This document shows, piece after piece, positions 14,550 to 34,510 of a stretch of DNA of 64,000 nt (positions are counted from its first letter, which is position 1; every line of letters starts with the position of its first letter). The position numbers were made by a program, and so were the translations under genes. The notes below the pieces were generated by a model. It was not told the origin of the DNA, made no database searches, and saw only the letters and a list, made by a program, of their open reading frames with translations. This stretch comes from a virus. Lineage: Duplodnaviria > Caudoviricetes. The stretch covers positions 23,904-87,903 of the IMG/VR virus record IMGVR_UViG_2563366756_000009; one strand, given 5' to 3'.

Positions 14550-14625
14550 GGGACGTTAGCTCAGTGGATAGAGCAACAGCCTTCTAAGCTGTCGGTCGCT
14601 GGTTCGATTCCAGCACGTCTCGCCA
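14550..14625 (+). tRNA. tRNA-Arg(UCU)
   Basis: Full cloverleaf: GGGACGT/ACGTCTC acceptor, ACAGC-CTTCTAA-GCTGT anticodon arm, TTCGA loop, CCA. Confidence 0.95.
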
Positions 14626-14626
14626 C

Positions 14627-14705
14627 GGGCCTCTAGCTCATGCTTGGTTAGAGCAGCGAACTCATAATTCGTTGGTGCCGCGTTCGACTCGCGGGAGGCC
14701 CACCA
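14627..14705 (+). tRNA. tRNA(CAU), most likely Ile2 (lysidine, reads AUA)
   Basis: Full cloverleaf, anticodon CAT, C4:G69 and C5:G68 TilS determinants, G1:C72 pair so not initiator. Confidence 0.85.
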
Positions 14706-14706
14706 A

Positions 14707-14797
14707 ACCCGAGTGGTAAAATTGGTAGACACAGCAGACTTAAAATCTGCTGCGCCTTTCTCGGCGCGTGCCGTTTCGAGCCCGGTCTCGGGTACCA
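14707..14797 (+). tRNA. tRNA-Leu(UAA), type II, with two stem mismatches (possibly degenerate)
   Basis: ACCCGAG/CTCGGGT acceptor, GCAGA-CTTAAAA-TCTGC, long variable arm; A12-C23 and T53-C61 mismatches. Confidence 0.8.
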
Positions 14798-15394: not shown

Positions 15395-16384
15395 TTACCG
15401 CTTGCCGATCTTGTCCACGGCGGCGCTAAGTCGATCCGTTACGAGGTGGCTATAGCGCTTCGTGGAGACCATCGACTTGTGTCCTAGAACTGCGCCCACA
15501 GTGTACAGGTCCACCCCTGCATTAATCATCTCCGACGCAGCTCCGTGCCGAAGGTCGTGAAATCGGACGTTCGGCAGTCCGGCGGCTATGCGCGCACGAT
15601 CCCACACGTCGGAGAAGTGCACGTCGCTGATTGTGAACTTCACGCGCCGGGCCCAGACGGCTACCTTGCGATGGATGGGAACAATGCGAGGCGTGCCGTT
15701 CTTTGTGTCTGCCAGGGAGAAGCCTTTCTTCGTGACTTTTGCGCGTAGGATCTCCGATCGTCTCATTCCTGAATAGAAGGCGATCAGGATGGCGGCGCGA
15801 ACTTCTCGGTTCTTGCACGCGCGCGCTATCCGCAGCATTTCTGCCCGCTGAGGATAAGCATGCCGCTCATTGTTGACGGCCGGGAATACCATCCGCTTCG
15901 TGTTGTCGTGCTCGATCTTCCCGATCTTGTGCATGTACTTCACTGCCGCGCGGATATAGGCAAGGATGTTCCGGATCGACGCGTCGGTGAGGGGGCGCTT
16001 CGGATCTCCGTCATGATCGCGACTCGCGCGCAGGTACCCGACGAATTTCACCGACCACTCGTGCAGGTCATCGGCTGGCGAGTCGTCGTACTCGGCGCGC
16101 CATTTCTCCAAGATCCGCACGCGGGCCTCGGCGTCCTTCCATTCGCCTTGCTTGTCGGTAATGTGCTTTCGAACACATTCACCGATCGTCACGACGGGCT
16201 TACGCGCGCCGGTGGCTATGGCGTAGACTTCTGCCTCCCACTCGCGCGCTATTTTGTCCGCTTCGGCCGCAGTAACTCCAGCAGGGAGGAGTTTTGTTTT
16301 GCGGATACGCTCGCCCTCGATGACGCGCTCGAACGTCCAGCGGAAACGCTTCTTACCGGATTTTGCAATGGTTTCGATCGGCAT
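15395..16384 (-). CDS. int: Tyrosine integrase
   Basis: Catalytic R (SGMRRSE), K (TKNG), HxxR (FHDLRH), LGH, Y (TKRYSH); start MPIETIAK. Confidence 0.95.
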   Translation of the reverse strand: MPIETIAKSGKKRFRWTFERVIEGERIRKTKLLPAGVTAAEADKIAREWEAEVYAIATGARKPVVTIGECVRKHITDKQGEWKDAEARVRILEKWRAEYDDSPADDLHEWSVKFVGYLRASRDHDGDPKRPLTDASIRNILAYIRAAVKYMHKIGKIEHDNTKRMVFPAVNNERHAYPQRAEMLRIARACKNREVRAAILIAFYSGMRRSEILRAKVTKKGFSLADTKNGTPRIVPIHRKVAVWARRVKFTISDVHFSDVWDRARIAAGLPNVRFHDLRHGAASEMINAGVDLYTVGAVLGHKSMVSTKRYSHLVTDRLSAAVDKIGKR

Positions 16385-16545
16385 GATTCGAGATATCTGT
16401 ACAGTGAGTCGATGTCGTATACGTGTGTTTTGCGGGTCAGTTTGAACCGCTGAATCGTGCGGCCCTCGGTGTCCAGCCGGCAGACGAAAGCTACCGGTAC
16501 CCCTAGGATTGCCGCGGCTTCGGCCACAGGAACGAGTTTTCCCAT
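16249..16545 (-). CDS. Excisionase-like HTH protein overlapping int 5' end
   Basis: LVPVAEAAAILGVP winged-helix start, GGAGG RBS, position upstream of int. Confidence 0.75.
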   Translation of the reverse strand: MGKLVPVAEAAAILGVPVAFVCRLDTEGRTIQRFKLTRKTHVYDIDSLYRYLESCRSKPLQNPVRSVSAGRSSASSRASVSAKQNSSLLELLRPKRTK

Positions 16546-16806
16546 GTTCCAATCCTCCAATCTCTCGCGGTCGCCCGCAAAGTCTGCCTCAGAATGCAAA
16601 CGGGGACGCGCTAACAAGGGCGTCCCCGCTTTCCAGTCATCAAATCAAGCACCAACGGCGGCGCTCACGTCTAAATTCCCCAATCTCTCGCGGTGACCCG
16701 CAGAATCTCTTTCAGTGCTTCGGCCGTGTCGGCCAAAAATTCTCTGCCGTTCTTGGGGCATAAAGCGAAGTCGTGACACGACACTAGGCATTCACCAGTA
16801 GCCTTT

Positions 16807-17011: not shown

Positions 17012-18682
17012 TCATGCTGCTGCAATCTCACGTTGCTCGCGTGCGCTGAAGGCTGCCATTTCCGGCACGTTTGCGCGCACCAGCGCTGCAGCCATCGGTG
17101 GGCTGACGCTGTTGCCACACATGCGAACCTGCGCATGCTTTGCGAGGCGCTTGCCGTTGAACACCGGCGCGATGACGTAGCTCGCGGGAAAGCCCTGCGC
17201 CGCGTATAGCTCATGCGGCTCGAGCATGCGCATGCCGATGTCGGCGATCTGGTACGTCTGGCCGGCGACCGTGACGAGGCCCATGCGATCGGTGCACGGG
17301 ATCGTGTGCATCGGGTCACGGCAGTCCTGATCCTGGCCGCCTTCGCTGTAGTACTTCACCAGGAAGGCGCGAACCTCGCCGGTGTGGTTGCCCTGTGCCG
17401 AGATCGTAGGCGCGGGCTCCGCGGTAGCGCTTCCCGTGCATTCGCCGCGGAGCTTGACCATGTGCGACGACACCAGCGCATGATGGTCGGCCGTCGTGAT
17501 CGTGCTGGCCGGCTCTTTCAGTCCGACGCCGGACCCGTCGTAATTCCCGCCGTAGTGCTTCGCGAGAAAGGCCGCTGCGAGAGCGAAGTGCCCACCCTTG
17601 ACCTCGGCGCATTGGGTGCGCAGCGGCTCGTCTGCCGACCAAGAGCGTTGCGTCGAAGCATTCGCGCACTCAGTCAGCACCGGCGCGACAAGGCCAAACC
17701 CGTGTTTGCCGGTCAGCGTCTGAATTGGTTCGCCGAGCGGCTGACCCCGGAAGTATTCGTACCCGTGGTTCACCTTCACGATGAACGGATCGGCCGAGTT
17801 GATGACGTACCGGCGCATGCCCCGCGCGATTCGGCGCTGCGTTGTCTCAGCCAATTCCTTCTTGCGCTCGAAGATGGACGGGCAGGGGATCGACCAGTCG
17901 ATGCACTCGGCGGCTGTGCGCCACGGTTTGCGTTGGCCTGCGATCACGGCGGCACTGCCCGGCGCGCCGTGAGTCGGCTCGGGCCACACGATCGGCTTTC
18001 CGTCGCAACGTGCGATCAGGAACAGGCGTTTGCGGATCGTTGGCGCGCCATAGTCGCAGGCGCGTAGTTCGCGCCATTCCACAGTGTATCCGAGGCCATT
18101 CAACAGGCGGTCGGCGTGATCCTTCCCGGGCTCGATGTTCAGGAACTCGCACGCTTCCGAAAACGCCGGGTGGAGTGCGGAAATTCCGTCGGAAAGCATC
18201 GCGACGAACCCCTTGAACGTTTCACCCTTTCGGGCCGGGTCCGGTCGGTACTCCCCGGAGTCAATCTCGATCAGCGGTCCCCAGGTCACGAATTCCTCGA
18301 CGTTTTCGACCGGAACGACTCGCGGGCGTACCAACAGCATCCAACGCAGGATGATCCACGCAAGCCCACGAATTTCCTTCTTTACCGGCGCGCCACCCTT
18401 GGCCTTGCTGAAGTGCTTGCAGTCCGGTGAGAACCAAGCGAGGCCCACAGGACGACCCTGTGTCAGCGCGAGCGGGTCTACGTCCCACACCGATTCGCAG
18501 TGGTGCTCGGTCTGCGGGTGGTTCATCGCGTGCATTGCGACGGCCTCGGGATCGTGGTTGATTGCGTGATCGACGTGGCGCCCGAGAGCCAGCTCGATAC
18601 CGCAGCTCGCGCCGCCGCCGCCGGCGAAGTTATCGATGATCAACTCGTCGGAAATGTCGAGAAGGAACTGATCTCTGATCAT
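17012..18682 (-). CDS. C5-cytosine DNA methyltransferase (orphan)
   Basis: Motif I DNFAGGGG, catalytic SPDC, motif VI ENV, DYGAPT.RKR, C-terminal GNSV; start MIRDQFLL. Confidence 0.92.
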   Translation of the reverse strand: MIRDQFLLDISDELIIDNFAGGGGASCGIELALGRHVDHAINHDPEAVAMHAMNHPQTEHHCESVWDVDPLALTQGRPVGLAWFSPDCKHFSKAKGGAPVKKEIRGLAWIILRWMLLVRPRVVPVENVEEFVTWGPLIEIDSGEYRPDPARKGETFKGFVAMLSDGISALHPAFSEACEFLNIEPGKDHADRLLNGLGYTVEWRELRACDYGAPTIRKRLFLIARCDGKPIVWPEPTHGAPGSAAVIAGQRKPWRTAAECIDWSIPCPSIFERKKELAETTQRRIARGMRRYVINSADPFIVKVNHGYEYFRGQPLGEPIQTLTGKHGFGLVAPVLTECANASTQRSWSADEPLRTQCAEVKGGHFALAAAFLAKHYGGNYDGSGVGLKEPASTITTADHHALVSSHMVKLRGECTGSATAEPAPTISAQGNHTGEVRAFLVKYYSEGGQDQDCRDPMHTIPCTDRMGLVTVAGQTYQIADIGMRMLEPHELYAAQGFPASYVIAPVFNGKRLAKHAQVRMCGNSVSPPMAAALVRANVPEMAAFSAREQREIAAA

Positions 18683-18715
18683 GCTAGGATTCCTGAAAAA
18701 AAACGGGGGTAACGC

Positions 18716-19291
18716 ATGTGGCGATACGCAGCCAGCTTGATTGGCGGAATGGTGGGTGGATACTTTGTGGCGAAGTTCTGGCAGTACCCGCCGAGCAGTA
18801 GTCAGGATGCTGCCGCGTGGGTGCAGGCTGTGGGATCGATCATGGCCATTGCCGGAGCCGTCTGGATCTTTCGGGCTCAACGGCGCGGCGACAGACGTGA
18901 CAAATGGGATGGGATGCTCGCGATCGTCACCGTGGTCAAAGCCGACATCCAAAGCATCTATGCGTTCTGCGATACGACGAATGCTTCGCGATTTGATCCC
19001 GACCTCTATTTCGACGAAATATATCGCCCAGAGAATTTTGCACACGTTGACGATTTGCTCTCAGCCATACCTGTTCACGAAATTCCGTATGCGTGGGCCG
19101 CTTGGAATTTGATCGCCCTTCGGAGAGAACTTCGCCGCCTGGCTGATCTTCTCGCCGGGATGAACCAATCGCACTTGCGTCTTGGGAAGGAGGGTGTGAT
19201 CGACGAGTGTGTGATAGCGATGGAGCACGCGCGAGCGATCAAGAACCTTGCCGACGGGGTTAGAGATAGGCAATCGGTACACCATATGTAG
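18716..19291 (+). CDS. Accessory 2-TM protein with helical C-terminal domain
   Basis: 191 aa; two N-terminal hydrophobic segments (AAAWVQAVGSIMAIAGAVWI); cassette-flanked. Confidence 0.8.
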   Translation: MWRYAASLIGGMVGGYFVAKFWQYPPSSSQDAAAWVQAVGSIMAIAGAVWIFRAQRRGDRRDKWDGMLAIVTVVKADIQSIYAFCDTTNASRFDPDLYFDEIYRPENFAHVDDLLSAIPVHEIPYAWAAWNLIALRRELRRLADLLAGMNQSHLRLGKEGVIDECVIAMEHARAIKNLADGVRDRQSVHHM

Positions 19292-19892: not shown

Positions 19893-20642
19893 TCACGCCC
19901 CCTTAGCGCCGTCGACGCGCTTGAACTCGACCACCCACACCCACGGGTTGGCGTCCCAAGAGCCGGGGCCGCTGATCGAATTCCACAATTGGCGAAAGTG
20001 GGCACGCGGCAGGCTTTCGAGTAGATCGCCGGACGACAAGACGCCCTCGGCACCACCGGTCAATCCGATTCCTTCAGCGATGCAATCCTGGTCGCTGATA
20101 CTGTTCAGGCGCTCAATACGCACGCCGGTCACGTCGAGCAGCGTCCGAGCAGCTTTGCGCGGCATATGGATCGAAGGACGCCACTGTCGATATTTCCCTT
20201 CCGGCGACTTCTCGCCATCAGGCCCATGCGGGTCATCTAGGTAATCGGCGCGATAGAAGACGAGGCAGCCGTCATCGTACGGCCCGAGGGGGTGGTTGCT
20301 GTGCTGCCACGTCTCGCGCACCCACAAGCGGTCACCCGCAACTCCGTATGGCGAGTGCTTCTCTGCGAACGTCGTCTGTCCCATGCAGTGGTACGTCCCG
20401 CGCGATGTGCACTCAGCAATTACGCTGAGTCGGTCGGTGCCAGTTGGCAACATGTCGGGGCAGACGAACAGATCTCCGATCTCGATATCGCTGAAGGTCG
20501 GTGGGTTCGTCCGGCTGACATACGGTTGCTTCTTCATCACGCGCCGCGTCTGCGTCTTCGAGCCGTCGAGGATGGCGCGCACCATCGGCGCGCTGAAAAG
20601 GATAGGGCGCTCGCGCACCGGCATTGGAGTGCTTTGGCTCAT
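19893..20642 (-). CDS. Conserved phage early protein (ASCH/PUA-like)
   Basis: RERPILFSAPMVRAILDGSKTQTRR, GDRLWVRETW, WRPSIHMPR, NPWVWVVEF. Confidence 0.8.
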   Translation of the reverse strand: MSQSTPMPVRERPILFSAPMVRAILDGSKTQTRRVMKKQPYVSRTNPPTFSDIEIGDLFVCPDMLPTGTDRLSVIAECTSRGTYHCMGQTTFAEKHSPYGVAGDRLWVRETWQHSNHPLGPYDDGCLVFYRADYLDDPHGPDGEKSPEGKYRQWRPSIHMPRKAARTLLDVTGVRIERLNSISDQDCIAEGIGLTGGAEGVLSSGDLLESLPRAHFRQLWNSISGPGSWDANPWVWVVEFKRVDGAKGA

Positions 20643-20674
20643 GCTAGGATTCCTCAAAAGATCCGGGGCGCTAA

Positions 20675-21304
20675 ATGAACAAGGTTGATAGATCGGTCAT
20701 CGACGATGGACGTGCGGTGTTGCTTGTCGCGTTCGGCATGCTGCTCGGAGTCGTTTTCGCTTACATCTGGCCGTGGAAGACATTGATCGTTGGTCAAACA
20801 AAAGACTGGGTCGATATCGCAACTGCGATCGGGACTGTTGGCGCGGTGGTGGCAGCAGTCGGAATCGCGTTGCGAGACGCGCGCTGGCGTCGTGAGACCA
20901 AGGAGTCGGAAGCCGTAATGGCCTGGGGTTTGGTCAGCGACGAGTTGCGCGCCAAAGGTGACGAGTTGAAGGAGATGTTGTCCGTCTTTTTCGCCGAGCC
21001 CGACCGCCTGCGACGGTCTGCCGAAAGCCTCTACGCCGCAAAGCGCGTCTCAGCCAATTTGGCGCTGACGATCCCACACGACATGCTAATCAAGCTCGCG
21101 AGCCTTCCTGGCGGAAGGGGCGGTCGCATCGCGCACGCTGTAGGCCTTTTCCCATCGATTCGACGTCTGCTTGAGCAGTACATCAGCGCAGGGGACTCGC
21201 ATGAGGTTTACTCGACAAGGAGTCTGGCGATACCGAAAATTGAGCAGGCTCTGGAAGATATCGAGATCGCTTTTCGAGACAAGGACGATAGGAGAATGAA
21301 GTAG
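20675..21304 (+). CDS. Accessory 2-TM protein with cytoplasmic helical domain
   Basis: 209 aa; two hydrophobic segments (DWVDIATAIGTVGAVVAAVGIAL); cassette-flanked. Confidence 0.8.
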   Translation: MNKVDRSVIDDGRAVLLVAFGMLLGVVFAYIWPWKTLIVGQTKDWVDIATAIGTVGAVVAAVGIALRDARWRRETKESEAVMAWGLVSDELRAKGDELKEMLSVFFAEPDRLRRSAESLYAAKRVSANLALTIPHDMLIKLASLPGGRGGRIAHAVGLFPSIRRLLEQYISAGDSHEVYSTRSLAIPKIEQALEDIEIAFRDKDDRRMK

Positions 21305-23236: not shown

Positions 23237-23897
23237 TTGCGATCTCCGAGGTTTCGGTAGCCGCTTTCTTCGCGGCGTCGTACTCGCGAATCGCCCATGC
23301 GATTGCGTACAGGTTCCAGACGAAATGGAAGGTGTATTCCTTGCAGTTCCATTCCCAGCAGTCGGTGAAGAGGTCCGGGAAGTCACGAGCGTGGAAATCG
23401 CGCATACGCCTGAACGCGTCACCCTCGTCCCGGTGGTCGAGCACGGGCGACAGGATATCTTCCTGAATCTCTGCCATCAGTTCAGCGCGGCGCTCATCGG
23501 AAATTTCGGCGTCTTCCAGATGGCTCTCGATGCGCTCTTTCAAGCGCTTCTCGAACTGTTCGACCGAAAACTCTTCCGCACGCCCACGCCCATATCCATC
23601 GCTGGCTACCGCCTGAAGCTTCTCGCACCAGTAACCCTTATTGATGTACAGCTTGGCCGGGTCGCCCCGATCGTCAGTGCGGAAGAACTCGAACATGTCG
23701 GTCAGCCGCGAGAAGACGTAAGTGCCCATATCACCACGGATGCACAGTGCGCCGGGCCACGTCAGGATCTCGAACCAGTACGATGAGCCGCCCTCTGCAC
23801 GCCGAAGCGCGATATGGCGATTGACACCGTCGTCACGAATCACCGTCATTTGGTGCGTGGCAACGTCTTGCAGGAATCTCTCTTGGGTGCAGGTCAT
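23229..23897 (-). CDS. Conserved phage early protein
   Basis: YWFEILTWPGALCIRGDMGTYVFSRLTDMFEFFR..YWCEKL. Confidence 0.75.
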   Translation of the reverse strand: MTCTQERFLQDVATHQMTVIRDDGVNRHIALRRAEGGSSYWFEILTWPGALCIRGDMGTYVFSRLTDMFEFFRTDDRGDPAKLYINKGYWCEKLQAVASDGYGRGRAEEFSVEQFEKRLKERIESHLEDAEISDERRAELMAEIQEDILSPVLDHRDEGDAFRRMRDFHARDFPDLFTDCWEWNCKEYTFHFVWNLYAIAWAIREYDAAKKAATETSEIANA

Positions 23898-24220
23898 GCT
23901 TCCACCTCTCTTGCGGCTGCTGCGTGGCCCATGCAGCCATGCTCTTTGTGATCGAAGTTGTCGCACTTGCCGAACGGGATGAAGTTGTGGCCGCGCGACA
24001 GTTCATCAAGCAGTTCGGCCTTCGCCTCGTCGGGCGTCATCGTGCGACCGTCGTCGTGCTTGAACATCCCGCGAAAGTCACGGGGCTTCCAGTTCATAAG
24101 TGCGCCGCGCACATCGAGGCACAAATGAAAACTCTTGCGCTGATGCGTTAGCGTCTGCACCACAGAAGGCGGCGCAGGATCGGTATTCAGCCCTTCGGGG
24201 CGTGGGTCGTAGGGGCTCAT
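23894..24220 (-). CDS. Conserved phage early protein
   Basis: LCLDVRGAL..DEAKAELLDEL..CDNFD..GCMGH; start at cassette motif. Confidence 0.7.
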   Translation of the reverse strand: MSPYDPRPEGLNTDPAPPSVVQTLTHQRKSFHLCLDVRGALMNWKPRDFRGMFKHDDGRTMTPDEAKAELLDELSRGHNFIPFGKCDNFDHKEHGCMGHAAAAREVEA

Positions 24221-24257
24221 GCTAGGATTGCCCTCCTAAACAAAAAGGAGAAATCGC

Positions 24258-24644
24258 TTGGATAAGTGGTCAAGAAGAATCGGGGGATTGACCGTTGCAC
24301 TGACATGCCTTTCGGGACATGCGGCAGATTGGGCAGGCTGGGTTCGTGTGCCGTTTCCGCCATCGAAGGACGGGCCAGAAGCGTCCATCTGGTGTCAGAG
24401 GCCTAAGCCGTATTACCCTGCCGAATGGGCTGATGCGGGAGAGGTAGGGGTGGTAAAAATTCGCGTGGTCGTTGCCCCGTCCGAGCGCGTGGTCTCAGCA
24501 TCGGTTGTGCAATCGTCTGGATTCGTGCGTTTGGACGACGCTGCTCTTGCTGCAGCGAAAGCTGTCCGATGCCGGGCCGTTACTGGCGATATTCCGTCCC
24601 CTGGATTTTCCGCCATCATGCCTATTTCGTTCGAGGCACATTAG
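24258..24644 (+). CDS. Exported TonB C-terminal domain protein
   Basis: TTG start 7 nt after AAGGAG; signal peptide ending GHA; YPAEWADAGEVGVVKIRVVV..VVQSSGFVRLDDAALAAAK matches TonB_C pattern. Confidence 0.75.
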   Translation: MDKWSRRIGGLTVALTCLSGHAADWAGWVRVPFPPSKDGPEASIWCQRPKPYYPAEWADAGEVGVVKIRVVVAPSERVVSASVVQSSGFVRLDDAALAAAKAVRCRAVTGDIPSPGFSAIMPISFEAH

Positions 24645-24792
24645 AGGGCTCAAACGAGCACCCCCCAGCGTCTGCCGTCCACGCCGGCGGTATACGTCGT
24701 TCTTCGCTGCGAAGAGTTCTAGCGCTTTCACCACTGACGCGCTAAGGGTGACGGTAACTTTGCTCATGCTAGGATTCCTGAAAATTTCGGGG

Positions 24793-25401
24793 ATGGCGAT
24801 GGACAAGGAACAAAATGGAGATCAGGTGAGCATCAGCCTGAATCGGACCATCAACACATATGCGGAGCTATGGCATGGAGCAAAATCGTTGGCGGCGAAA
24901 GGTCGTGCCGACGTCGATGGCTCGTTTTGGACGCTCATGGGGGCTCAGATTCTCTTTGCGTTCAGCATCGAGGCGTACTGCAACTACGCTCTTCCGTATG
25001 TGTTTTCTAACCTAACGGAGAACCGCCGGCGGGATGTTGCCCAGCGCCCTCCTGTGTGCAGGATTGCACTGATCTGCGCGTCGCTGGACGTATCGTTCAA
25101 TGAAGGTGGCGACGAGTTGAACGCGCTCCAAGAACTATTCAGATTGAGAAACTCATTGGCGCATGGACGACAGCTGGATCTCGCCGAAAGCAAGATGTAC
25201 GCGGCGGAGGACGTCAACGATCCAGCGAATTTTTGGCTTTCCGCACCTTGGGAGGCGATGTGTACAGTGGACGCTGTAGACAGGACTCAGGATGTCGCTT
25301 ATCGGATCATCACGGGAATTCACGGAAGATTGCCAACACATCTCGGGCGTCCGTTTAAATTCGGCGTCGGTTCTGGATTGGCTCAACTGGTGCGGTCGTA
25401 G
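24793..25401 (+). CDS. HEPN-motif (RxxxxH) accessory protein
   Basis: 202 aa helical; AFSIEAYCN and ELFRLRNSLAHG. Confidence 0.7.
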   Translation: MAMDKEQNGDQVSISLNRTINTYAELWHGAKSLAAKGRADVDGSFWTLMGAQILFAFSIEAYCNYALPYVFSNLTENRRRDVAQRPPVCRIALICASLDVSFNEGGDELNALQELFRLRNSLAHGRQLDLAESKMYAAEDVNDPANFWLSAPWEAMCTVDAVDRTQDVAYRIITGIHGRLPTHLGRPFKFGVGSGLAQLVRS

Positions 25402-25535
25402 TTACAAATCTGCGGGTCGTTCAAGTACTCCCGCCAATGCACCCATCGCGTTGGCGTGTGAAACCCCCAGTTGCGCTGCCACGGCCCCAGGATGAAAGGG
25501 GGGGCGCGTAGACAGATCGACCAGCACGATGGCGG

Positions 25536-27137
25536 TTACGCCGCTTGTTTTTGCAGTGCCGATTGAATGTGGTCAATCAAAGCCGCACAAATCACCTCAA
25601 AGTCGCCTTCGTGGTACAGCTTCGCGGCCTTGTCGGTCGCGGCGTGAGTGATGCCAAGGCTGGCAAGACCGTCGGCGGTCAGGCTAATCGGCGAGAGGCG
25701 CTCATTGATCTGCCCGAGGCGAAGCGTGGGTGCGCCCTTTGAGGCAGCGCGCACAGTCGTATTCCAAGGCGGCGCATCCGGTTTCTGTTGGGTCGGCCCG
25801 GAAGGGCTGACTGCCGCAGTAGGTATTGCCGGAGCGCCCGGCGTGACCTTCTGCGCTTCCGCTCGCTTGTGCTGCTCGATCCGCGTCGTGACGGCCAACT
25901 GAAAATCCTCGGCCGGTTTCTGGATTAAGGATTGCAGGTCACGGAACAGGAACACGTGGCTTTCGTGCTGGGCGAACCAAGCCAACTTCTCGCGCAAATC
26001 CCGCGCGGCGGCGTCAGCGGCGATCTTGCCCGCGGCGACGGCCGTGTCGACGGCGTCGTGGAGGCTCGCGAGCGTGCGCTTGTTCTTTGCCGCTGCCACG
26101 AGGTCCGGTGCGGGGATCACGATTTGGACCGGCTTCAGTTCGGCGTTCAGCGCGGCCACGTGATCCGTGTAGGCCTTGCGTCCGCCGACAATGATTTCGC
26201 CCTTGATCTCTTCTTTGCGCTTCGTGACGAGTTTGTCGAGGCCCAGCCGCTTTTCGCGGAGTTGGGACTTGATGTAGTCGACCGTGCGCATCAGCTCGTC
26301 GATGCTGGCCGTCTGAGCGAGTGCTGCGTTCTTCGCGACTTCGAGTTCCTTTTCGGCGGTTTCGCAGAACTTGACCGTCGCTTCGGCGTTCGCGAAGTCT
26401 TCGTCGCTCTTCAGGTCGGTCTTGATGCCCTCGATGAAGCGCTCAGCAGCCGCTCGGAACGTCGGCAGGTTGCTCGCAAGCACCTCGCCGCAGATCTGCA
26501 CGGCGAGCGCCGGCAACGCCATGATTGCGTCGGCCTGCGGCTTCTCGACAATCTCGACCGGCGCGTAGCTCACTAGGTCGCTCGCGAACTGTTCCCAGCC
26601 GGCCTGCAGTCGCTCGAACCATTGCGCATCAGGTTCGATCTCGATGCGCTCCATGTTGTCGGGCGTGCCGTCCGAGACAACGAAAATCACCTTCTTTGCA
26701 CCCGTCACTAGCATGACCTGCTGGCATTGCGGCCAGTACTCTTCGGGCAACTCGCCAGCGCGCACAGCTTCAGCCAGTCCCGCGTTCCATTGCTTGTGCT
26801 CGAACGCGATGTCTTCGGCCATCGTCAGACCATCGCACGAAGCGGACAGGCGCCCCAGTGAACAGGTAACCGGGTACAGATCGTCTCCGATGATGCCCTC
26901 GACGATCGGGCGTGCCAGCGCTTCAACCTCGTGGCCGTAATCCAGAATGTTCTTCTGAACCCAGTCCGAGAACTCGCGCGGCGTGCCGACATACTTCATG
27001 TGCAGTAACTCGTTGCGCTTTACCTTGGACGAGAGGCCAAGCATTGCGGCGGCTTCGCTTGCGCCGAAGTGCTCCAGGCGGAACTGCGCCCATTCGTCAG
27101 ATCCCTGCACCAAGTTGTGAATGATGCGTTCAGTCAT
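25536..27137 (-). CDS. YqaJ-like viral recombinase/exonuclease with helical C-terminal domain
   Basis: LVQGSDEW, FGASEAAAMLGLS, GHEVE, LSASCDGLT, FEHK, YWPQCQQ. Confidence 0.9.
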   Translation of the reverse strand: MTERIIHNLVQGSDEWAQFRLEHFGASEAAAMLGLSSKVKRNELLHMKYVGTPREFSDWVQKNILDYGHEVEALARPIVEGIIGDDLYPVTCSLGRLSASCDGLTMAEDIAFEHKQWNAGLAEAVRAGELPEEYWPQCQQVMLVTGAKKVIFVVSDGTPDNMERIEIEPDAQWFERLQAGWEQFASDLVSYAPVEIVEKPQADAIMALPALAVQICGEVLASNLPTFRAAAERFIEGIKTDLKSDEDFANAEATVKFCETAEKELEVAKNAALAQTASIDELMRTVDYIKSQLREKRLGLDKLVTKRKEEIKGEIIVGGRKAYTDHVAALNAELKPVQIVIPAPDLVAAAKNKRTLASLHDAVDTAVAAGKIAADAAARDLREKLAWFAQHESHVFLFRDLQSLIQKPAEDFQLAVTTRIEQHKRAEAQKVTPGAPAIPTAAVSPSGPTQQKPDAPPWNTTVRAASKGAPTLRLGQINERLSPISLTADGLASLGITHAATDKAAKLYHEGDFEVICAALIDHIQSALQKQAA

Positions 27138-33673: not shown

Positions 33674-34510
33674 TCAAAGCTTGGTCCCGCGCCACGCATA
33701 GACCACTCTGCCAAGGATCTTGAATTTCTCGCGCTCGCCATTCTGGATCAGGTACGGCTCGTACTTCTTGTTGTCTGAGATCATGAGAATTGATCCGTCC
33801 GGACGACGCTGCAGCCGTTTCACGTACAACTCATCGCGCAGAGCAAGAACATAAATCGCATCAACTTTCACGTCGACCACGCCACGGTCAACCCATAGCA
33901 AGTCACCGTCGTTGAAGGTACCTTCCATCGAGTCTCCGAACGCTGGCAAAAGCGCAAGATTCCTTGGGCTGGACACATTTGGCAGGGTGTCCCGGACCCA
34001 TGTCCGGGTGACTCTGATCTGTTCCACGACATTGTCATAGTCGGGCATCGGGAAGCCATTCCCCATGGACGCGCGTACGTCGAAGCGCGGGATCTCAATC
34101 TCGTCCGCCAAAGCCTTTGCAAAATCGAATCTGGTCAGATGGGCCGCGGCGCTGGTCGGATCGTCAAAGTCAGCATCCGTCAACTCGCTCACATCAGGGA
34201 GAACGTCAGAGGGGGGCGGACCTTCATAGTTACGCAGTGCAGGCGAAATATGTAACGCAACGCTCATGGCCTGTTTGGCGAGCGTCGGGCTGAAATCGGC
34301 AATAGAAACGCCTAGACCGCGCGCGAAGCCGGCGGCGGCCTTCGCATTCAGCGGGCTTCGCGCATTGAGGTACTGCCAAACCATCCCCTGCGAGCCGATC
34401 TCGAACTTCGCGCCGAACGCCTCTTGCGATAGATCGGATTTGACTTTGAATAGGGCCTTCAGACGCGCCGCGTCTTCGATCTGCCAGGGAAGAAGGGTTG
34501 TTTTTGCCAT
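33674..34510 (-). CDS. cI: CI-like repressor with S24 autopeptidase
   Basis: N-terminal HTH (LSQEAFG..SQGMVWQYLN), GDSMEGT Ser and YVKRL Lys. Confidence 0.93.
   Translation of the reverse strand: MAKTTLLPWQIEDAARLKALFKVKSDLSQEAFGAKFEIGSQGMVWQYLNARSPLNAKAAAGFARGLGVSIADFSPTLAKQAMSVALHISPALRNYEGPPPSDVLPDVSELTDADFDDPTSAAAHLTRFDFAKALADEIEIPRFDVRASMGNGFPMPDYDNVVEQIRVTRTWVRDTLPNVSSPRNLALLPAFGDSMEGTFNDGDLLWVDRGVVDVKVDAIYVLALRDELYVKRLQRRPDGSILMISDNKKYEPYLIQNGEREKFKILGRVVYAWRGTKL

Follow-up and report, generated by a model that had tools for sequence, protein, structure and literature searches.

A predicted exported TonB C-terminal domain carried as a prophage cassette in a probable Pandoraea host, a candidate competitor of TonB-dependent entry

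Introduction

For phages, bacteriocins, and siderophore-antibiotic conjugates alike, TonB-dependent receptors are a major way into the cell. In E. coli, periplasmic TonB fragments spanning residues 33-239, 103-239, or 122-239 and exported by means of a signal sequence inhibit TonB-dependent transport, abolishing that of ferrichrome, and the 33-239 fragment blocks the PMF-dependent contact between ExbD and TonB (10.1101/2020.01.05.895219). This work bears out the dominant-negative effect stated in the initial annotation of the locus described here. Since the 33-239 fragment interferes with the ExbD-TonB contact, the target of such fragments may be ExbD, not TonB boxes. Phages also encode lipoproteins that exclude superinfecting phages at FhuA, namely Cor of phi80, N15, and T1-like phages and Llp of T5, as described in a review (PMC11436027).

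A phage-borne protein with a TonB C-terminal domain has already been annotated in phage 21 ("TonB C-terminal domain protein," UMO75484.1; OL657228.1, 41842..42168). It is a 108-aa lipoprotein (LAVGC) of the enterobacterial TonB type that is encoded after the lysis genes near cos. Relatives of this type are found in 15 phage records, i.e., E. coli lambdoid and Stx1a phages and one Klebsiella phage, under labels such as "TonB family protein," "TonB fragment," and "partial tonB-like membrane protein of prophage CP-933N," and the protein is present in 1225 of 5426 complete E. coli genomes ("TonB family protein"). Our literature search found no functional study of the phage 21-type proteins or of the protein described here. 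The latter is encoded in a stretch of phage DNA of 64,000 nt (the window), which is part of the IMG/VR provirus record IMGVR_UViG_2563366756_000009 (positions 23,904 to 87,903) and is found as identical DNA on a 227-kb contig of assembly GCA_000389825.1. The host is probably Pandoraea, as close relatives occur only in this genus.

Results

A TTG-initiated gene encodes a TonB C-terminal domain

The gene and its product comprise the following features.

24258..24644, plus strand: gene of the predicted exported TonB_C protein, 128 aa, TTG start, stop codon included (read from the ORF list and the sequence)
24246..24250, plus strand: Shine-Dalgarno (SD) sequence AGGAG, 7 nt upstream of the TTG start (direct reading)
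24258..24323, plus strand: predicted Sec (type I) signal peptide, residues 1 to 22, cleavage after G-H-A
24324..24392, plus strand: short linker ADWAGWVRVPFPPSKDGPEASIW, residues 23 to 45
24393..24641, plus strand: TonB C-terminal domain, residues 46 to 128

The reading frame put forward in the initial annotation is real and has exactly the coordinates given there; it is on the plus strand and encodes 128 aa. Its assignment to the TonB_C type was upheld by the Pfam comparison that had been suggested there: PF03544 (TonB_C) matched with 45.1 bits (cut-off, 24.6; E value, 1.4e-11). TIGR01352 (tonB_Cterm) matched as well (47.5 bits versus a cut-off of 27.1), with residues 51 to 126 covering 74 of the 76 profile positions. 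Residues Y53, P54, G64, D93, and A96 are invariant in a 46-sequence alignment, and E62, S86, S87, G88, L92, and F125 are nearly so. Y53 and P54 make up the YP motif of the domain, SSGF-RLD-AAL spans residues 86 to 97, and the last strand reads AIMPISF; the family motifs (YP, E-G-V, SSG-x-RLD-x-A-A, and the final strand) are thus all retained.

The nearest cellular sequence tested is a 232-aa TonB of Pandoraea eparura, whose C-terminal domain is 39% identical over 83 residues, aligns without gaps, and shares both cysteines, C46 (24393-24395) and C105 (24570-24572). Judged by sequence, the domain is of the TonB type of the host genus. Helix 1 is the point at which the two proteins part, reading YPAEWADAGE in the window's protein and YPTQSRRLGE in P. 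eparura TonB, with loss of the two Arg of SRR-GE. Part of the TonB surface is therefore altered, and the partner may differ. We asked whether the cysteine pair might mark an exported subfamily distinct from TonB and rejected this, as the pair is also present in both canonical P. eparura TonB proteins and in 14 of 27 TonB-like matches with long N termini.

Public gene calls begin at a GTG (V31, 24348) and so drop the signal peptide from a 98-aa product, and the call for the homologue in the P. eparura prophage (locus L010, about 8088; 95-aa product) is likewise some 30 codons late. Such late starts mean that automated annotation hides the predicted export of these proteins. Loci L002, L006, and L010 retain the string GGAGAAATC(A/G)C ahead of TTG or GTG; start codon, SD sequence, and N-terminal peptide are conserved in three lineages besides that of the window. 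In a comparison with an 84%-identical metagenome homologue, dN/dS was 0.22 for the whole gene, 0.18 in the TonB_C domain, and 0.31 for codons 1 to 45, indicating purifying selection on the N-terminal stretch. The conserved SD sequence and start, together with the values for these codons and for the whole gene, favor the longer form initiated at TTG.

The N terminus resembles an export signal, not an anchor

The cleavable-looking signal peptide pointed out in the initial annotation is predicted to consist of an n-region (MDKWSRR; net charge, +2), a 13-residue apolar core (IGGLTVALTCLSG), and the sequence G-H-A/A-D, whose small residues at -3 and -1 fit the -3/-1 rule. Export through Sec, with processing after Ala22, is predicted. 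The absence of an anchor for ExbB/ExbD coupling and of a Pro-rich spacer, also claimed there, stood up to scrutiny. The best 19-residue Kyte-Doolittle mean of the N terminus (0.99) is too low for a membrane span, the apolar core comprises only 13 residues, and the stretch from the predicted cleavage site to the domain is just 23 residues long and holds four Pro. P. eparura TonB, in contrast, has a transmembrane helix with His and a Pro-rich spacer of roughly 100 residues. Lacking both anchor and spacer, the window's protein would be an exported TonB head that cannot couple to ExbB/ExbD, and the lack of conservation of His21 further argues against an anchor of the TonB type.

Two other modes of export were considered. 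A lipobox was sought in the window's protein and not found; Cys17 is preceded by Thr and is replaced by Tyr in the 84%-identical homologue (P0001), so that a lipoprotein form was rejected. Tat export was also rejected, since the twin Arg is KK in P0001 and RG in a chromosomal Pandoraea relative (P0082), which makes Sec the more likely route. The homologue of the P. eparura prophage (54% identical) has a lipobox, LGGC, at the corresponding place. Export is thus kept while its mode differs between a type I signal and a lipobox, which singles out the periplasmic location as the conserved feature.

The modeled fold is that of TonB C-terminal domains

An AF2 model of the protein, built on 46 homologues, has a mean pLDDT of 83.9, with block means of 82 to 98 across residues 41 to 128; the linker is modeled at about 73 to 75 and includes a short predicted strand at residues 28 to 31. 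The TonB_C fold (a three-stranded sheet packed against two helices), on which the initial annotation had made its reading depend, was recovered, and every one of the strongest hits among solved structures is a TonB C-terminal domain. Solved domains of this kind include those of N. meningitidis (9ddz; 9dc4 chain T, with TbpA), E. coli (1u07, 1xx3, 2gsk with BtuB, and 2grx with FhuA), and P. aeruginosa (6i97, TonB1 with FoxA). The top match was N. meningitidis TonB, either TbpA bound (9dc4_T) or free (9ddz), with a Foldseek probability of 1.00 and TM scores of 0.82 to 0.85; VIA gave for the same match a Z score of 11.9 and an rmsd of 2.6 over 86 residues. The TonB domains of H. pylori, P. aeruginosa (FoxA bound), and E. 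coli (BtuB bound) scored Z values of 8.1 to 8.6. All of the top 10 solved matches were of the TonB type (Z from 11.9 down to 7.8), and TolA domain III came next (Z of at most 7.5). A BFVD structure search with the protein gave no match.

The gene lies in a discrete cassette of a lambdoid-type prophage

The surroundings of the gene comprise these further features.

24221..24695, plus strand: 475-bp cassette made up of leader, gene, and 51-nt tail, apparently missing from related phages
24215..24229, plus strand: motif L, GCTCATGCTAGGATT, in which TG-C-TAGGAT (24220-24228) resembles a TGn extended -10 element about 30 nt before the start codon
24793..25401, plus strand: cassette of a HEPN-fold protein, 202 aa, preceded by a separate motif L copy (24762-24776)
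18716-19291, plus strand: cargo protein of 191 aa, starting with one or two membrane-like helices ahead of a soluble helical portion
20675-21304, plus strand: cargo protein of 209 aa, starting with one or two membrane-like helices ahead of a soluble helical portion

The prophage setting is as first described and is of the lambdoid type, the gene being located between an integrase (15395-16552) and an S24 repressor (33674-34510). It is antisense to the repressed leftward early operon, whose other genes include those for a C5 methylase and a RecE/YqaJ-like exonuclease. Three tRNA genes, for Arg (TCT), a Met type (CAT), and Leu (TAA), lie 1 nt apart at 14550-14797, immediately upstream of the prophage at its integrase end. 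The placement of the gene in a motif-bounded cassette was likewise correct, with motif L at 24215 and the next copy at 24762. A sludge-metagenome contig joins position 24220 to 24696 and position 24787 to 25425, at joins that may contain other letters; related phages therefore appear to lack both the TonB_C and the HEPN cassettes. On such comparisons, the TonB_C gene behaves as a 475-bp moron.

Motif L occurs in the window at 18677-18691 (with one mismatch), 20637-20651, 24215-24229, and 24762-24776, versus 1.1 copies expected by chance. Every copy lies 17 to 29 nt upstream of a plus-strand cargo gene. On the minus strand, the 24215 copy supplies the ATG (24220) of a 108-aa gene at 23894-24220. 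More generally, motif L is found wherever a minus-strand early gene meets a plus-strand cargo gene, and the CAT within it is the start codon of the former. The homologues of the P. eparura prophage and of a chromosomal Pandoraea locus are likewise preceded by the motif and leader, and the P. eparura prophage has five copies of the motif. We infer that motif L is the promoter of the cassette and is active in the lysogen. A scan with the sigma-70 consensus revealed no canonical promoter near the TonB_C gene, and a terminator scan revealed none directly after it, the only terminator-like sites being at 25530-25545, after the HEPN gene. As for transcription, none of the sequencing runs contained more than 17% of the sampled words, and the sole RNA run covers only 25425-25600, with no reads over the TonB_C gene.

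The homology block that the window shares with loci L002 to L004 spans positions 24150-24719. The breakpoint at 24150 recurs, since homology with L002 to L004, with the P. eparura prophage (twice), and with several metagenome contigs starts or ends there; it falls 24 codons into the 108-aa minus-strand gene (N terminus, MSPYDPRPEGLNT..PAPPSVV) and looks like a recombination junction of mosaic phages. A further minus-strand ORF (24498-24767) begins at the ATG in the 24762 motif copy (MSKVTVTLSASVVKALELFAAKND...) and overlaps the 3' end of the TonB_C gene by 150 nt in antisense orientation. In L002, a longer minus-strand gene encodes a similar peptide close to its C terminus, and codon 24 of this ORF abuts the ATG of the 108-aa gene in the sludge contig. 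The ORF is probably a remnant left by cassette insertion.

The HEPN fold is typical of abortive-infection nucleases. The top VIA matches of the neighboring HEPN cargo are all HEPN proteins, with Z scores of 8.6 to 9.9 that are middling for a helical bundle, and the Pfam profile HEPN_RiboL-PSP reaches only an E value of 0.062. FRNSLAHG and EAYxN are invariant between this protein and a 33%-identical homologue; an index of 5.8 billion proteins yielded only three homologues. We regard it as a candidate abortive-infection RNase. It appears to be solitary, with no antitoxin-like gene seen adjoining. For the 191-aa and 209-aa cargo proteins, a family search gave no match, Saf_2TM at an E value of 0.12 being a hint only. 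An 81%-identical copy of the 209-aa protein is encoded in the P. eparura prophage.

Phage-linked relatives are few and exported TonB_C proteins are common

Closest to the protein is a relative (84% identity) carried by three short metagenome contigs. A locus search of IMG/VR by narrow alignment gave a single other match, the P. eparura prophage copy; these are the only two phage-linked relatives. A locus search of IMG/VR with the single protein found nothing, and tblastn against 50,697 phage records gave no match at an E value of 1e-3 or of 10. None of the PHROG and PADLOC profiles matched the protein at E values up to 1; phrog_34172 (TonB-like, 251 positions) matched 12 cellular homologues and not the window's protein. 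An exhaustive profile-free search returned 894 matches at E values up to 1e-3. For a survey of architectures, 154 proteins were classed, i.e., the matches of a representative search plus the proteins of the window and of phage 21. The majority (105) have at least two TonB_C matches. In 27, which are TonB-like, a single match lies over 90 residues away from the N terminus, and 22 are short single-domain forms, several of which bear signal peptides or lipoboxes.

A domain tree (61 rows, 89 columns) groups the three prophage sequences in a single clade (SH-aLRT, 92), to which it gives no firm position or origin, and puts the phage 21 protein far away on a long branch. The domain of the chromosomal relative P0082 (36% identity) falls outside the prophage clade despite having motif L, leader, and signal peptide in common with the phage gene. 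P0082 belongs to a cluster of three consecutive exported TonB_C genes amid ordinary, non-phage metabolic genes. The genes of this cluster (locus L006 of a Pandoraea genome, CABPSK010000001.1, 8001-9838) encode products of 124, 121, and 327 aa, the last with three repeats; the first gene combines the phage-type motif, leader, and signal peptide with a divergent domain. This pattern suggests that a 5' module may have been exchanged between phage cargo and chromosome.

A BLASTP comparison of the window's protein with that of phage 21 (UMO75484.1) gave an E value of 1.0, with 20% identity over 49 residues. Since there is no BLAST-detectable similarity between them, the two types look like independent captures, each from the TonB type of the respective host group. 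Independent capture by phages of E. coli and Pandoraea would argue for a selected function in lysogens.

Discussion

The initial annotation had cast the protein as a decoy for superinfection exclusion, a role reached from structure by inference. Our own reading, held tentatively and at a little less than even confidence, is that the protein may be an unenergised competitor of TonB that dampens the TonB-dependent entry of phages or bacteriocins. Transcription in the lysogen would start from a TGn extended -10 promoter belonging to the cassette itself, and Sec export with cleavage after Ala22 would follow. Folding in the periplasm, probably with a C46-C105 disulfide, would yield a soluble TonB head that could not be energised. 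This head would compete with host TonB for its partners, be they the TonB boxes of transporters, those of bacteriocins or phage proteins, or the periplasmic domain of ExbD. TonB-dependent import would be weakened, which would protect the lysogen against phages and bacteriocins that depend on TonB. As a membrane-tethered lipoprotein, the P. eparura homologue would act in the same way.

Several lines of evidence favor the competitor reading. The protein has the TonB_C domain and fold and is missing anchor and spacer; the gene is a real coding gene, signal peptide included, as indicated by its dN/dS (0.22) and its conserved start and SD sequence; and a periplasmic location is kept across differing modes of export. 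In addition, the gene lies in the early region of a prophage, on the opposite strand, in the interval between integrase and S24 repressor, shares motif L with all located plus-strand cargo genes, adjoins the HEPN cargo, and has been gained or lost as a discrete unit relative to related phages. Finally, periplasmic TonB fragments do inhibit transport in E. coli. Other observations weaken the case. The E. coli inhibition came from overexpression and possibly acts via ExbD, helix 1 departs from the genus TonB, and the promoter and terminator scans found neither a canonical sigma-70 promoter nor a terminator after the gene. A general brake on iron and B12 uptake would also cost the lysogen. The gene is rare (one other IMG/VR record, three short metagenome contigs, and 0 of 50,697 phage records), and it has a non-phage chromosomal relative, small exported and multi-repeat TonB_C proteins being common in bacteria.

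The same chromosomal relative makes a housekeeping periplasmic role a real rival, and it is the main one. The protein would then be a host-type periplasmic accessory protein from a widespread family of exported TonB_C proteins, carried by the prophage as a fitness factor and not as an exclusion device; it could tune or stabilise particular transporters or bind peptidoglycan or another periplasmic partner. We consider this explanation somewhat unlikely, although P0082 matches the phage gene in promoter-like motif, leader, and signal peptide and lies within a three-gene cluster of exported TonB_C genes, the survey was rich in multi-match proteins (105 of 154) and held 22 short single-domain ones, several with a signal peptide or lipobox, and helix 1 is unlike that of the genus TonB. 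Both the antisense cargo position beside a HEPN gene and the independent capture of TonB_C by E. coli phages point instead to conflict functions.

Action during the lytic cycle is improbable. The protein would stop TonB-dependent irreversible adsorption on infected or lysing cells and thereby spare progeny, a purpose like that of T5 Llp, and the location of the gene in the early region would suit this role, as would the precedent of early-acting exclusion proteins such as T5 Llp (10.64898/2026.03.26.714494). However, the gene is antisense to the early operon, so that the strong leftward transcription that follows induction should collide with its own, and this layout would be the usual one for cargo expressed in the lysogen. 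It is equally hard to credit that the gene is a functionless passenger, i.e., a captured gene fragment retained by linkage. Its rarity, its absence from related phages, and the disagreement of public gene calls on the start would fit such a history, but dN/dS (0.22, and 0.18 in the domain) speaks against it, as do the intact frame, start, and SD sequence in three prophage-type lineages that are only 54 to 84% identical and the retention of all family motifs. Least credible of all, and very improbable, is a membrane-anchored mini-TonB whose signal anchor would stay uncleaved, engage ExbB/ExbD, and transduce energy. H21 is close to where the hydrophobic stretch ends, and RR precedes that stretch, as in TonB, but the short apolar core is followed by Asp24 and the 19-residue hydrophobicity is low, His21 is missing in P0082 and in the lipobox-bearing P. 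eparura homologue, and a 23-residue linker cannot span the periplasm, the genus TonB spacer being roughly 100 residues long.

If the competitor reading is true, phage-borne TonB heads that are not energised would represent a new class of superinfection-exclusion or bacteriocin-immunity factor. By acting at the coupling step, they could protect many receptors at once, and they would alter the iron and vitamin B12 uptake of lysogens as well. The effect could be widespread, as the E. coli type is found in about a fifth of complete genomes. The Pandoraea lineage would add the same solution, reached in another bacterial order and with another TonB type as its source, which is in itself an argument for function, and would offer a second, sequence-independent test system. 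It is conceivable, if rather doubtful, that prophages of Enterobacterales and Burkholderiales have independently captured the TonB head of their hosts and export it without its energy source as a general exclusion or immunity mechanism; this would operate at the energy-coupling step by mimicry of the coupler, not at a single receptor, with the switch between soluble and lipid-anchored forms tuning its site.

Among known systems, the TonB energy transducer itself shares with the window's protein the same Pfam and TIGRFAM domain along its whole length and the same fold (Z of 8.1 to the BtuB-bound E. coli domain). The engineered E. coli TonB fragments are, like the window's protein, exported and anchorless; they differ in being overexpressed laboratory constructs that contain more of TonB than the globular domain and whose target, TonB boxes or ExbD, is disputed. 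Cor and Llp are also phage encoded and exported, act at a TonB-dependent receptor, and would serve the purpose proposed here. However, they bind one receptor, FhuA, and are not TonB-like, whereas a TonB mimic would hit the energy-coupling step and could affect many receptors. A further counterpart is the phage 21 protein, which is likewise small and phage borne, combines an export signal with a single TonB_C domain, and is encoded by a cargo-type gene. The window's protein is set apart from it by a type I signal peptide, a domain of the SSG-RLD type, and a gene placed antisense in the early-left operon. From these sequence comparisons, it belongs to a kind of protein already annotated in phage 21, of which it is a separate lineage.
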